28,355 nucleotides of DNA from Chloroflexota bacterium. Lineage in GTDB: Bacteria > Chloroflexota > Limnocylindria > Limnocylindrales > CSP1-4. The position numbers and the translations under genes were made by a program. A model generated the notes under the pieces. That model was given only the letters and a program-made list of their open reading frames with translations. It made no database searches and was not told where the DNA came from. The stretch lies in NCBI GenBank assembly GCA_043778745.1, contig JAYWFP010000120.1, positions 1 through 28,355 on the forward strand, given 5' to 3'. Positions 15,013 to 20,800 of this stretch are shown in pieces (the stretch's first letter is position 1; the number at the start of each line of letters is the position of its first letter).

Positions 15013-15294
15013 CTACCGAAGGAGGTCAAGCAGGATCCGCCGCGCCTCCCCGTGCGGCACCATCCCGCCGTTGAGCGCGTAGCGGATCGCCCTCTCGGAC
15101 AGTCCCGACGCCTCTGCCAGGACCCGCCAACCCTTCTCCTGTCGGAGCTGGCGCAGGGCCGGCAGGCGCAGCTCCCACTCGCGGCGCTCGTCCCGGTACG
15201 TCACGTAGACGTCGTCGGGGTCCGTGATCACCCCGTCCTCGACCTCCTCGAGGCGGTTGCTCTCCTTGCCGATGTGCAGCGGGAGCCCGATGGC
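15013..15294 (-). pseudogene. Orphan 3' fragment of a sister casposon polB (C-terminal HTH region)
   Basis: About 76 of 93 residues identical to the C-terminus of the polB at 17899-20925. DNA similarity spans 15043-15294 vs 17938-18189. No in-frame start after the UDG stop. Confidence 0.88.
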
Positions 15295-15311
15295 TCGGCA
15301 AAAGGCAAGCC

Positions 15312-15872
15312 CTAGTGGTGCTCCCCCATCAGTGCGGCTCGCGCCTGCCTTAGGTCGTCCAGCGCTTCCGCGCGTCGCCCCGGTGCGCGGTTCCAGCCCG
15401 ACGGGTGCCAGGTTGGAAAGACCCGAGCGCCGCCGAGGTCGTGGGCTCGGCCGCGGAGGCTCTCGAGTGGGGCATGGATTCCGAGGACTCGCCGCGCCGC
15501 GACCGCGCCGAGGGCGACGATGACGGCCGGCCTGACGACCGCGAGCGCGAGGTCGAGGTACGGCGCACACGCCTCCACCTCCTCTGCTGTGGGGGCTGGG
15601 CGTGCCCTCGGCCGGCACATGGAGGTGTTCGTCACGAACACCGCACTGCGATCGAGACCGGCCTCTTGGAGGAGTGCGTTCAGGGCGCGTCCGGCATCGC
15701 CGACAAACGGGCGGCCGGCCAGGTCCTCTTCAGCGCCCGGTGCTTCGCCAATGACCATCAACCGCGCGTCCGACGGACCTTCCCCGAAGACGACGTGCGT
15801 CCGTCGCTTGGCGAGGGGGCAACGCTGGCAGTCAGTCGCGATCTCGTGCAGGAACGGCAAGCCTCGGTCCAC
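15312..15872 (-). CDS. udg: Uracil-DNA glycosylase, family 4 (Fe-S type)
   Basis: CQRCPL, VFGEG, IGEAPGAEED, GRPFVG, MCRP, EACAPYL, PTWHPS. Confidence 0.9.
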   Translation of the reverse strand: MDRGLPFLHEIATDCQRCPLAKRRTHVVFGEGPSDARLMVIGEAPGAEEDLAGRPFVGDAGRALNALLQEAGLDRSAVFVTNTSMCRPRARPAPTAEEVEACAPYLDLALAVVRPAVIVALGAVAARRVLGIHAPLESLRGRAHDLGGARVFPTWHPSGWNRAPGRRAEALDDLRQARAALMGEHH

Positions 15873-15906
15873 GCCGTGAACCGTACGCCCTAGCGATTAC
15901 GGTTGT

Positions 15907-16932: not shown

Positions 16933-17859
16933 CTATCCCAGGGTGAGTTGCACCGGCGGACGGGCCAACTCAATGAGGTCGTCGAGGATCTCTTCGACGG
17001 AATCGATAACCAAGGTTCCTCGCCGCTCGGCGTACCGCCGAGCCCACTCCTCATGTAGCACCAGGGATCTGACAAGGAACAACTTCTTGCCGTGCTCGAG
17101 GGCGAGGCGCGCCTGCATCCGGGCTCCGCTAGTTGGACCCGCCTCGATGACAACCGTCCCGATAGCCATCCCGCTCATGACAGCGTTCCGCAGAGGGAAG
17201 GAGTACTTCGTCGGAGGTGCGGATGGCCAGAATTGCGAAACTAGCGCACCCGAGGCGACGATCGACTCAGCAACTTCAGCATTCTCGGACGGATAGATGC
17301 GATCGATCCCAGTGCCCATCACGGCAACTGTGCGACCGCCGGCGGCGAGCGCGGCGTGGTGTGCCGCCGTGTCAATCCCGCGCGCGAGTCCAGAAAGAAC
17401 CGTTACGCCCTGTGCGGCAAGGCCGGTTGCCAGCCGCGATGCTTGATCCAGGCCAGCGTCCGAGGGCGAGCGGGTGCCGACTACTGCAACCGCACGATTG
17501 TCAGCTGCTCGGAGTTCGCCCCTAACGAAGAGAAACGGCGGACGATTGTAGATGTGCCTCAGGTTCGTCGGGTACGCGTCGTCCAGGACCGTGACGAGGT
17601 GGATCCCTTGCCGCTCCTTCTGAGCGATGAGATCCTCGTAGCGCCGAAGGTCGGCTGGGCCGACCTTCGCGGCCATCGCCTCCGCAGCCGAGAGATCGAA
17701 AGGTTCGAACCCAGTCCAGTCGCGGTGAAGCACCCGGAGGGCGCTTGCGGCATCCTCGAGGAGTGCTGAGGTGCGATACCACTCGCCTTCGGTCGCACCG
17801 ACAAGGGCGAGGACAGCTGCTCGCTCCGCGAGAGTCGCCTGAGGCGTCATACCGAACAT
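16933..17859 (-). CDS. dprA: DprA/Smf-family Rossmann-fold protein
   Basis: YPTNL ... PPFLFVRG, VAVVGTR, SGLARGIDTAAH, VMGTGIDRIYP, FPLRNAVMSG, VIEAGPTSGA, ALEHGK. Confidence 0.92.
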   Translation of the reverse strand: MFGMTPQATLAERAAVLALVGATEGEWYRTSALLEDAASALRVLHRDWTGFEPFDLSAAEAMAAKVGPADLRRYEDLIAQKERQGIHLVTVLDDAYPTNLRHIYNRPPFLFVRGELRAADNRAVAVVGTRSPSDAGLDQASRLATGLAAQGVTVLSGLARGIDTAAHHAALAAGGRTVAVMGTGIDRIYPSENAEVAESIVASGALVSQFWPSAPPTKYSFPLRNAVMSGMAIGTVVIEAGPTSGARMQARLALEHGKKLFLVRSLVLHEEWARRYAERRGTLVIDSVEEILDDLIELARPPVQLTLG

Positions 17860-17872
17860 GCGTTCTATTATA
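17860..17872 (-). promoter_or_regulatory. Consensus -10 box, probable leaderless promoter for dprA
   Basis: TATAAT (17872-17867), then 7 nt, then the ATG at 17859. No RBS and no clear -35. Confidence 0.6.
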
Positions 17873-17898
17873 ACCAGATCCTTCCCATGATGGTAGTC

Positions 17899-20800
17899 CT
17901 ATCCATGGCCCTGGAGAAGCCCAAGTAGTCGCGCCCACGCCTCCCGATGCGGCACCATCCCGCCGTTGAGCGCGTACCGCAGCGCCCGCTCCGACAGCCC
18001 CGCGGCCTCCGCCAGGTGCCGCCAGCCCTTCTCGTCCCGCAGCCGCCGGAGCGACGGCAGCGCCTGCGCCCACTCCGCCCGCTCGTCCCGGTACGTCACG
18101 TAGACGTCGTCGGGATCGGTGATCACGCCGTCCTCGACCTCCTCGAGGCGGTTGCTCTCCTTGCCGATATGGAGCGCGAGCCCGATGGCGTGAACAGTCA
18201 GGCGCGGGAGGAGCCCGACCGTGCCCCGCCGGCCGAGGCCGCCGCGCGGATCGCCGCTCTTCGACTCCGGGTGGAGGCGGTAGTCGCGGACGACGTCCCC
18301 GTAGGTCAGGAGGCGGACGCAGCCCGGCGCGCCCCCGGGCCGGGTCGTGACGGCCAGCGGGGACCCGTCGCGGCGGTCGTGCCAGGGTAGGTCGAGGAGC
18401 TCGCTCGGCCGCGAGGTGAACGGGGCGACGGGCGTCACGCCCGCGCGGCTACGACCTCCGGGGAGCGGGGCCAGTGGGTCCGCGTGTCCGGTGAGCATGA
18501 ACCCGAACGGCTTGACCTGGTCCCGGAAGGGCCGGCCCTCGTTGAAGTGCCGGAACGGCGTGAGCACGACGGGCGACGAGATCGGGAGCTGGCTCACGGC
18601 CGGCAGCGAGAACCACGCGGGCGGCGGTGGCAGCGGCGTCCCCTCCGCCTCGGCGATGATCCGGCGCCAGACGACGTCGGCCCACTCGGGCCAGTCCTCG
18701 GTCCAGTCCGGATGCCGCTCGATCGGCGAGCGGTAGAGGCCGAGGCCATGGTTCGACGCCTTCCGCACGTCGATCCCGTTCGCGGTCCGGTTGTACAGGA
18801 CGTAGCGCTTCGAAGACAGAGCCAACGCGTAGAGCTCCTCGGGCGCCTCTGGTCCACCGCCGCGGGCGAAGTTCTGGTCCTCGAGCTTCACGAGCGAGCG
18901 GATCGAGTCCGTACGGTATGGAAGGAGCGCGTCCATCCCGGCGAGGACGTCGGTGACCTCGGCCCAAGAGAGTGCGCGGACGGCCTCGGCCCCGTGCGGC
19001 AGCCGCTCCGGTCCGCCCGGGCAGGCGAGGAGGCCGCCCGTCTCGGACGCGACGATGACGAGCGAATCCGTGTCGCAGGCGACGTACGTGCCGCCGAGGG
19101 CCTCGACGTCGGCTTGAAGGAGTGCCAGGAGGAGCCGGGCCGCGCCCGTCACCGCCGCGGCGAGGGGCGGGAAGGCGAACTCGCCGGGCTCCTCCGGTGT
19201 CGATACCCGGGCCTCCATCGACCAGAGCCCGTGCGCGGCGACGACCTTGCCGCCGCGGACTGGGTCGAGCTGTCGGAACTCGGCAAAGATCCCGTAGGCC
19301 CCGCCTGAGGCGAGCGTCTTGAGGAACTGCGCCAGGCGCTTGTCGGTCTTCTTGATTCGGGCCCGCTCCTCGGTCGCGACCCGGAAGAGGTCGTCGCGCG
19401 CCGGGTCCACCCGGATCGAGCCGCGGAGCCGGACCGGCTGCAGGCCCGGGAGGACGCCCTCCGGCTCGATCCGAAACGCCTCGAGGACCTCGGGCACCGA
19501 GCCACTGAGCAGCTTGGCGGCGATCAGGTCCGCCAGCGTGAACCAGACATCGTGGTCGGTGACGAGGTGGTTGAGCCCGATCGTCCAGGCCGGCGAGCCG
19601 GACGGGAGGTCAGGGTCCACGGGCTCGCCTCCACCGCTCCCGTATCGAGCCCGGGCTGGGAGGAGCTCGCCCGTTGGCCGCACCCGGCAGAAGACGCCCG
19701 CGAGGCGGGGCCAGACGCTCGGGTCATGGAGCCGCTCGCGGGTGAGCGACCCCAGGAGGTCGCGGGCGGTCTCGGTGGCATCAACGGCGACGAGGCGCCG
19801 CGCGGTCACCCAAGGCCAGAGGTCCTGGAGGGCGAAGACCGTCGGATACATGCTCGTGAAGTCGACATACCGGACGGGCAGCGGCACCCACCGGATCCGG
19901 CATTCTGTCCGGCCGCCGAAGTACGTCGTGGTCGCCTGGCCGAGGCGCTCGACCGGGACATCGGAGCGCTCGACTGGCGGCGTAACGCCCGCGGCCCGGA
20001 GGTACGCCTTGCTGATGGCGGCCGGCGAGTAGGCCTGCTCGGGCTCGAGCTCGATCGGGTGGCGGTCCCACTCCCCCATGAGCGCCTCGTGGAGTTCCCA
20101 CGTGAGACGGACGTCCTGGCGGTTGTAGTCAATGTACTCAGGCGTGATGACCCCATGCTCCTCGACCACGTCCTTGCGCGCCTCGAGGCCGAATTCCGCT
20201 GCCGCGCCGTTGAGCGAGAGCGAGTGGTCGGTGAACACGTATGCAAGCGTGTGGAGGTCGAGAAACCTACCGCGGTACGCGTGGCCACCCTCGAAGAGGT
20301 AGGGGTCCAGGCGCGCCGGCAAGACGAAGCTCACGAAGTTGCGCTTCGAGCCGAGGCTCTTGATGCTGATCGCAGGGCGGTACTGGTCCGGCCAGGCATG
20401 GCCCTCGGCATCGAGCGATTCGAAGAGCTGCAGGGTGAAGCCGCCGTTCCGGGCCGGCCGCCAAGCGAACGCGAGGCGAGAGAGGTCGAAGGGAAGGTTG
20501 TAGCAAATCACGCGGGCGCGAGCCTTGTACGCGATCGGCCAGAAGACCTCACGGAGGAAGGCTCGTCGGCTCCGCAGCCGGAGGTGGCCACCGCCGTCAG
20601 CCGCATGGTCCGCGACGTAGCGCCGGAGCGTGGCGAGGTCCGCCGCCGGCAGGTCGTCGGCGTGGAAGAGACCCTCCTGGCGCAGCTTGCCCCCGGGTCC
20701 ATACACGCGGTACGAGCCGAAGAGGAGGGCCTGACCGTCCCAGGCGGTGGACGGCTCCCCACCCGGCCGGATCGCCGTGGTCTCCGTGTCGAAGACGAGG

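Follow-up and report, generated by a model that had tools for sequence, protein, structure and literature searches.

Casposons are thought to be the source of the CRISPR adaptation machinery, and little is known about how the bacterial ones evolve. Here we ask why a casposon of a Chloroflexota bacterium carries the 3′ end of its family-B DNA polymerase gene (polB) twice on the same strand, with four genes between the copies. The element lies on a 28,355-nt contig (JAYWFP010000120.1 of assembly GCA_043778745.1), the whole of which was analysed and is called the window below. The extra copy is termed F and the tail of the resident polB is termed R. The evidence leads us to favour, with some reservation, the reading that F is a stub, the 3′ remnant of the polB of another, related casposon, and marks a seam inside a composite element.

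The extra polB tail and its separate history

A repeat search of the window returned a single large pair in direct orientation: 15020-15294 is 83% identical to 17915-18189 over 275 nt, at a spacing of 2895. When the same 275-mer was slid across the whole window as a control for chance, mean identity was 28% (standard deviation 3.4%) and the next best placement reached 44.7%, compared with 82.5% for the repeat. Read in codon register, the homology comprises the last 94 codons of polB (15016-15297 versus 17911-18192), the two copies being identical at 230 of 282 nt (81.6%) and 82% identical in amino acids, with zero gaps. Their longest identical runs measure 41, 35 and 29 nt, and identity is 92% over the first 114 nt and 74% over the last 168 nt. 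F covers only PolB residues ~908-1005, and both copies lie inside a 17.6-kb casposon bounded by terminal inverted repeats (TIRs) and a target-site duplication (TSD) of 14-15 bp. An earlier note made from the sequence had described two same-strand polB 3′ copies, which the repeat search and its chance control bear out; its protein identity of about 82% also holds, while the homology runs slightly further, to 94 codons, than the 15043-15294 and 17938-18189 that it had delimited. The four genes that it placed between the copies are likewise there, all on the minus strand: a uracil-DNA glycosylase (UDG), a helix-turn-helix (HTH) protein, a phosphoribosyltransferase (PRTase) and DprA.

The window is an entire contig of a 1.9-Mb metagenome-assembled genome (MAG; 67% complete, Dormibacteria). 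The same arrangement with an identical F is present in an ENA scaffold (L014), an ENA contig (L096) and a Logan contig (L098). L014 spans the element from one TIR to the other (window 8575-26147) and matches it at 99.994% over 17573 nt (one mismatch), and L096 shows four mismatches inside the element, all in polB; polymorphism between the assemblies was accordingly uninformative about F. Logan contigs from four runs, which belong to one study and are not independent evolutionary sampling, span both junctions (15244-16128 and 16099-18109). Because the other three assemblies share the arrangement and contigs of four runs bridge both junctions, misassembly is excluded. All four differences between the window element and L096 cluster within 39 nt of polB (18617-18655), and the host region 2597-2968 adjacent to the element holds 55 differences from L096; both clusters look like small recombination patches between strains.

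UDG aligns to its last residues with the homologues of L006 and L015 and ends in a TAG at 15314-15312. The tail homology begins at ~15310-15297 (polB codon ~908), near which a 2-nt indel breaks the frame further upstream. Because the homology starts only about 5 nt after an intact UDG stop, the join between UDG and F is an illegitimate one and did not come from a crossover in the tail. An upstream extension of the repeat, suggested by a search of the MAG that paired polB residues 887-1005 with 15016-15372, was rejected, as 15312-15372 is genuine UDG sequence that aligns to the last residue. On the other side, 128 bp separate the stop of F from the stop of a convergent gene for a DndB-like protein, which forms a pair with a methyltransferase gene; the homology of this pair to a defence island in another contig (L099) ends at 14853.

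Between F and R, the synonymous divergence (dS) is 0.49 and the ratio of non-synonymous to synonymous divergence (dN/dS) is 0.27; for R and casposon tails from other genomes the corresponding values are 0.52-0.99 and 0.15-0.36. The two copies resemble tails of casposons from different genomes in this respect and, as had been supposed, are not a fresh duplication. To place the F/R differences on their branches they were polarised with 11 outgroup tails, over ~74 synonymous and ~208 non-synonymous sites (neutral expectation ~1:2.8). The F branch carries 16 synonymous and 14 non-synonymous changes, and the R branch 8 and 10. Since 16:14 departs from ~1:2.8 and the ratio of F is no higher than that of R, these counts indicate that F evolved under constraint, as coding sequence of a working polB, through almost the whole time since it parted from R. 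In an alignment of 36 tails, F retains 21 of 21 invariant and 26 of 26 nearly invariant columns, and R departs from the family consensus at several positions (e.g. P6A, A47S, S64A and R86W). The two copies have the same GC content at third codon positions (GC3), 0.93.

In a tree of 53 tails, F was sister to R and R's near-identical copy, in a clade with P0004 (ultrafast bootstrap 94 and Shimodaira–Hasegawa approximate likelihood ratio test 70, then 94/92). In nucleotide sequence, F and R share 82% identity when compared in register and 86% when a gapped local alignment is used, and the best other tails reach 77-82% identity with F. A closer donor among other casposons, a check that the earlier note had proposed, was searched for, and none closer than the resident was found among the tails of 120 PolB homologues, 80 metagenome loci, genome contigs and 400 genomes of the phylum. 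A search by way of the linked DndB-like gene returned only the same element (L096-L098) and the tail-less L099.

Cargo and core-gene stubs in related elements

Relatives were collected through a PolB tail search (131 homologues) and a metagenome scan (238 tail-encoding places, 80 of them kept). The HTH_17-UDG pair follows polB in L006, L015, L018, L021, L024 and L101, HTH_17 alone follows it on the short contig L017, and L103 and L104 are without the pair. What lies between polB and HTH_17 differs: a ShosA-like gene and a weak ShosT match in the window; four genes including a P63C protein in L015; open reading frames (ORFs) of 484 and 331 aa over ~2.6 kb in L006, known from a mechanical ORF list only; an AAA_15/21 ATPase in L101; and 0.75-1.0 kb in L017, L018, L021, L022 and L024, which in L022 holds one 204-aa minus-strand ORF. 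Judged from these gene orders, the four genes of the window do not form one cassette; HTH_17-UDG is a module conserved in the subfamily, and variation is confined to the genes that separate polB from HTH_17. A second tail is absent from relatives with other slot contents, with the exception of L022, so a tail duplicate is not the usual way in which the slot changes.

These comparisons bear on what the earlier note had made of the repeat. Its idea of a swappable slot downstream of polB survives in that the cargo there varies among relatives, and fails in that the slot is not occupied by a single four-gene cassette. Its proposal that cargo is gained by recombination at the polB tail is not supported, because a homologous crossover leaves no duplicate and the UDG/F junction is illegitimate, and neither is a tail duplicate as the normal route of slot change. 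By the note's own condition, its inference would have been refuted had F been closest to the resident polB with only random decay and had the cargo at this position been constant in related elements; instead, the resident is nearest only weakly, the divergence is not random decay, and the cargo downstream of polB varies.

An island of ~270 nt around HTH_17 (15880-16154) is ~90% identical to L017, L018, L022 and L024, whose polB tails are ~80% identical to that of the window, and UDG is only ~51% identical in protein to every relative (known, among these four loci, for L018 and L024). This suggests mosaic exchange around the HTH_17 gene, and the island together with the polB tail could provide a second homologous anchor for traceless cargo swaps.

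In L022, an ORF at 3955-4437 joins the first 26 HTH_17 codons to a polB tail copy (from tail residue ~15). This second tail carries 3-nt and 9-nt in-frame insertions and a 2-nt frameshift and adjoins a convergent methyltransferase gene. The locus would fit a former HTH_17-UDG-tail arrangement like that of the window, later cut by a deletion.

Truncated polB genes occur elsewhere in the family. About 40 related loci extend for 3 kb or more upstream of the tail, and ~16 of these have no complete polB body; the break points vary (tail only, or the last 100-470 residues), and an insertion sequence (IS) lies at the break in L070 (IS110 transposase) and L101 (rve type). Twelve loci with polB 3′ stubs and varied 5′ break points (L028, L029, L056, L057, L060, L069, L070, L077, L081, L090, L094 and L095) show no detectable Cas1 or small core genes on the locus, up to 10 kb upstream where the contig allows, and two of them (L056 and L077) carry two stubs each in opposite orientation. 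On a 1.2-kb contig (L067, 211-918), a cas1 3′ end on the minus strand lies ~300 bp from a polB tail on the plus strand, and this element may have lost its interior by deletion, which would make it a non-autonomous derivative in which both outward-facing gene ends survive. Small proteins resembling F are rare: 17 were found in 5.8 billion sequences (53-152 aa), nearly all on a single contig each, and the three located on long contigs proved to be parts of polB genes that are broken or truncated by an IS. Because there are only 17 proteins of mixed length and the three examined are broken polB, a conserved family of stand-alone tail proteins does not appear to exist.

A tail of the other outward-facing core gene is also present in the window. 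An 86-aa ORF, on the strand opposite to the resident cas1, encodes a homologue of the Cas1 C-terminal HTH that is 80% identical to the Cas1 tail of L015 and 42-44% identical to the resident Cas1. Its strand fits an element oriented like L007 (positions 5027-20694 of that locus, from a MAG labelled Chloroflexia), a related casposon at the same host site, upstream of Rrf2-SufC-SufS, which has the same TIR motif and left-junction sequence as the window element (8561-26161) and the opposite internal gene order. The ORF is probably a second seam relic, from an element in that orientation. A long TIR carrying the cas1 3′ end was rejected as its source, as the ends of the element share no other similarity; L047 has a similar ORF after polB and no long TIR.

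Origin of the extra tail

According to the reading that we favour, the first element would have carried polB-ShosTA-HTH_17-UDG and the second a polB followed by the convergent methyltransferase/DndB-like pair, and an illegitimate event would have joined the two. One candidate route would be a deletion between tandem copies at a shared target site. Another would be homology-facilitated illegitimate recombination, which combines one homologous anchor with one illegitimate join, with incoming DNA of a strain carrying the other element. In either case the joining event would have removed the polB body and core of the second element and kept its cargo arm. Since polB and cas1 point outward to the cargo arms, a deletion that removes the core and spares an arm would leave the 3′ end of a core gene, and a 3′ stub is therefore what is predicted. 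F has the two properties of a stub from a distinct casposon lineage, i.e. it is a partial polB (residues ~908-1005) and its dS from R is at the level seen between genomes. The stub itself most likely does nothing, and it is young enough to be undecayed.

Several observations weigh against this reading. No TIR or TSD motif was found near the seam, and for that reason the route through tandem copies is one that we infer and do not see. The searches described above found no donor, every assembly with the element apparently comes from one study, and no seam-free strain is at hand. The second tail of L022 is most like its own resident tail. The position of F as sister to R in the tail tree is what an old local duplication would also give. 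F has no stop, no indel in its 94 codons and no relaxed selection, so that it lacks the decay of a relic, and a fully open frame of this kind also fits a functional gene.

The crossover envisaged by the earlier note, in the conserved polB tail of sister casposons (e.g. Campbell-type integration of a circle carrying a tail and the four genes, with loop-out possible and a swappable slot as the outcome), is in our judgement unlikely. Recombination of such a circle with the resident tail would give tail-cassette-tail in direct orientation, and the long identical runs, the fall in identity from the first 114 nt to the last 168 nt and the variable cargo directly downstream of polB would all suit it. 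However, even such a circle could arise only with an illegitimate join of the UDG stop to polB codon ~908, and relatives with other slot contents have no second tail. The fall in identity is not a clear mosaic, as every pair of tails is more alike in the 5′ part (83-88%) than in the rest (71-78%) and the 9 differences counted compare with a rough expectation of ~13 derived from other pairs; we make no claim of a mosaic or of gene conversion in the tail. The 3′ half of R matches L103 slightly better than that of F does (76% versus 72%), the opposite of what would be expected were the 3′ half of F the recipient's own. Loop-out would produce a deletion joint between the copies, and none occurs in the Logan contigs of the four source-study runs, a weak negative given that contigs drop rare variants; these contigs break at shared 31-mers, as expected. 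Depth over the left flank, cassette and polB is similar (9.5, 12 and 10.3 in X1; 7.8, 6.3 and 6.9 in X3).

Alternatively, F might be a working small gene for a stand-alone HTH protein that binds casposon ends or damps transposition, with the 86-aa Cas1-tail ORF as a second such regulator. Truncated transposase products damp transposition in other transposons. The open frame, the purifying selection on the F branch and the retention of all conserved residues agree with this, and gene callers in L014 and L096 place a 72-aa ORF in F that starts from an internal GTG at about 15231, preceded by GAGGAGG, and contains the whole of the predicted HTH. Small HTH proteins are also a regular casposon component (PMC4046053). 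Yet there is no start codon at the edge of the F homology, and the GTG and its upstream purine run are also found inside the resident polB, so they are not specific signals. Of the 17 stand-alone tail-like proteins, those that were examined are broken polB; L022, the sole other double-tail case, carries indels and a frameshift; and a past inside a working polB would explain the selection signal equally well. We regard a small gene as improbable. An old local tandem duplication of the polB end followed by neutral drift would account for the moderately supported sister grouping of F and R, but neutral drift is rejected by the substitution counts on the F branch and by the lack of any indel or stop in 282 nt at dS about 0.22. 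Such a duplication, or an assembly artefact, which the three further assemblies and the bridging contigs of four runs contradict, is very hard to credit.

If F is the stub of a second casposon's polB, a broader pattern may be considered. It is possible, and we put it forward only tentatively, that casposons of this bacterial lineage grow by accretion, incoming elements fusing with the cargo arm of an older resident at a shared target and each fusion leaving an outward-facing core-gene 3′ stub as its seam. Were this true, the window would contain three layers or more: one formed by the left arm and the Cas1-tail stub, one by the methyltransferase/DndB-like pair and the polB-tail stub, and one by the intact core together with ShosTA-HTH_17-UDG. 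The order of fusion could then be read from the stubs, and the casposon would be a self-renewing defence island. In a bolder version, the retained HTH stubs would be expressed and modulate transposition.

The element, its target site and known systems

The features of the window are collected in Table 1. The TIRs are 81% complementary, and exact 15-bp direct repeats abut both of them. A third copy of the target (27059-27073; 14/15, one mismatch) overlaps the stop of a 405-aa host gene. The right TSD is followed at once by a left-type TIR (GGGGTAGTAGTC...GAAGTTGCCGCGG), which begins at 26177, and then by 880 bp without a right TIR; 26177-27073 is a remnant of another insertion at the same target. 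Because the third target copy follows this solo left-type TIR, the site was used more than once. A similar TIR-like start occurs in L007 after its own right TSD.

Table 1. Features of the casposon in the window
Feature	Coordinates	Strand	Remarks
TSD, left copy	8546-8560	+	CGTCAATCGCGGGCC
Left TIR	8561-8592	+	32 nt
Cas1 C-terminal HTH homologue	11231-11491	-	86 aa; strand opposite to resident cas1
Dam-type methyltransferase and DndB/DpdB-like protein	11680-14884	+	DndB/DpdB-like protein 768 aa; convergent on F
F, putative relic (extra polB 3′ end)	15013-15297	-	94 codons and stop; no start codon at 5′ edge
UDG	15312-15872	-	Pfam 2.8e-35; intact to C-terminus; stop ~5 nt from F start
HTH_17 (excisionase-like)	15907-16113	-	68 aa; Pfam 2.3e-7; conserved subfamily module; most conserved DNA island in the region
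PRTase-like, weak ShosT	16184-16924	-	Pfam 7e-4, under cut-off; PADLOC ShosT 8.6e-5, partial; variable cargo
DprA family, matches ShosA of Shosta	16933-17859	-	Pfam 3.5e-63; PADLOC ShosA 3.2e-68; variable cargo
Resident family-B DNA polymerase	17899-20925	-	1008 aa; polymerase motifs present; tail is R
R (resident tail)	17911-18192	-	last 94 codons of resident polB
Resident Cas1 (casposase)	22971-24533	+	Pfam Cas_Cas1 4.4e-45; best PDB match Methanosarcina mazei casposase 6OPM, 1.2e-23
Right TIR	26130-26161	-	32 nt
TSD, right copy	26162-26176	+	exact 15-bp match to left copy

The resident Cas1 is of the stand-alone casposase type by its Pfam and PDB matches. Neither a CRISPR array nor cas2 appeared in the ORF list or in Pfam scans of the long ORFs, no dedicated scan having been made for either. 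Between polB and cas1 (20922-22905) lie three core ORFs without a Pfam match, of 150 and 178 aa on the polB strand and 346 aa on the cas1 strand, none of which gives an HNH endonuclease match even with E allowed up to 1. Dozens of related elements share the conserved 150- and 178-aa ORFs, L015, L103 and L104 have ORFs of similar size at the position of the 346-aa ORF, and the core of Cas1, 178-aa ORF, 150-aa ORF and PolB is widespread among related loci.

The motifs of a family-B polymerase (Exo I-III, Pol A, B, C and KxY) can be read in the PolB translation, which contains FDTETT, YNLPFD, DFTSMYP, KTLASGGAYG, CDTDS and SKRY. The protein falls below the Pfam threshold (DNA_pol_B_2, E 0.41), some homologues carry PF03175, and a PDB sequence search with PolB gave no match. 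Its body is closest to that of L103 (73%). A chimeric resident PolB, with body and tail of different origin, was rejected, as a sliding-window comparison gave mild shifts only and no break at the body/tail border. AlphaFold2, run with the 36-sequence alignment, places a four-helix domain at tail residues 37-93 with predicted local distance difference test (pLDDT) scores above 90, the first 30 residues being unstructured. Foldseek places this domain among XRE/Cro-type HTH proteins with probability up to 0.99, with E-values that are not significant at such length, and Pfam gives a weak HTH_3 match. The polB tail is thus confidently predicted by these models to be an XRE-like four-helix HTH. The Cas1 C-terminus carries a related motif, GLS-x9-G-x2-VPH.

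Two of the cargo modules have counterparts outside casposons. The C-terminal part of the DndB-like protein matches PADLOC PDC-M34B, and the methyltransferase/DndB-like pair also occurs in the non-casposon defence island L099 (4406-7459), beside GmrSD, HNH and a KAP NTPase, with 79% identity in the DndB-like protein and about 75% in the DNA. As in the Shosta (ShosTA) anti-phage system, a DprA-like ShosA adjoins a PRTase; unlike in Shosta, the PRTase matches ShosT weakly and over only 52 of 237 profile positions, a difference that concerns the cargo and not the repeat.

The element resembles pipolins in being a PolB-carrying, self-replicating integrative element with exchangeable defence cargo, here Shosta-like and methyltransferase/DndB-like. 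It differs from them in that pipolins have a primer-independent PolB and tyrosine recombinases and not Cas1, TIRs and a TSD (PMC11551731). With published casposons it shares Cas1 and a polymerase with family-B motifs, TIRs, a TSD and, as described for family 2, C-terminal HTH domains of related type on Cas1 and PolB alike, and with some of them UDG and methyltransferase cargo; in contrast to the published family 2/3 core, which includes an HNH endonuclease, no HNH was detected in the core of the window, and its PolB lies under the Pfam and PDB thresholds (PMC4046053).

Together, the composite organisation makes the element a concrete, datable trace of cargo acquisition, with two defence-type modules (Shosta-like and methyltransferase/DndB-like) in one TIR-bounded unit and what is probably a foreign polB stub at the seam. 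Across a large, mostly undescribed casposon family of soil and sediment, variation is concentrated in the genes directly downstream of polB. For annotation, the lesson is that polB and cas1 3′ stubs mark seams, and that a short conserved ORF at a seam need not be a gene.

The likeness to homology-facilitated illegitimate recombination lies in the outcome: with an anchor in the shared host flank, a TIR or the core genes, one side would end up with an intact element and the other join with a truncated gene stub. The difference is that this is a candidate route only, with no anchor or microhomology demonstrable at the junction. An internal polB stub or a composite casposon of this kind was not found described in a limited literature search. 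The closest published parallel is in archaeal casposons (Methanosarcina spp., M. mazei), where tandem insertion, decayed copies with fragmented polB and solo TIRs occur at one target (Krupovic et al. 2016, PMC4779613; Krupovic et al. 2014, PMC4046053). As in those arrays the target has been reused, the window holding three target copies, a solo TIR remnant and core-gene stubs. In the published arrays a shared TSD delimits the decayed copy as a unit of its own. In the window, by contrast, the stub has a cargo module on either side within a single TIR-bounded unit, neither a TIR nor a TSD occurs at the seam, and the host is a Dormibacteria bacterium and not a methanogen. Tandem insertion, decayed polB and solo TIRs are hence already known, and the window is a bacterial example with the stub inside a TIR-bounded unit: a tidy example of cargo build-up in casposons, not a new mechanism.

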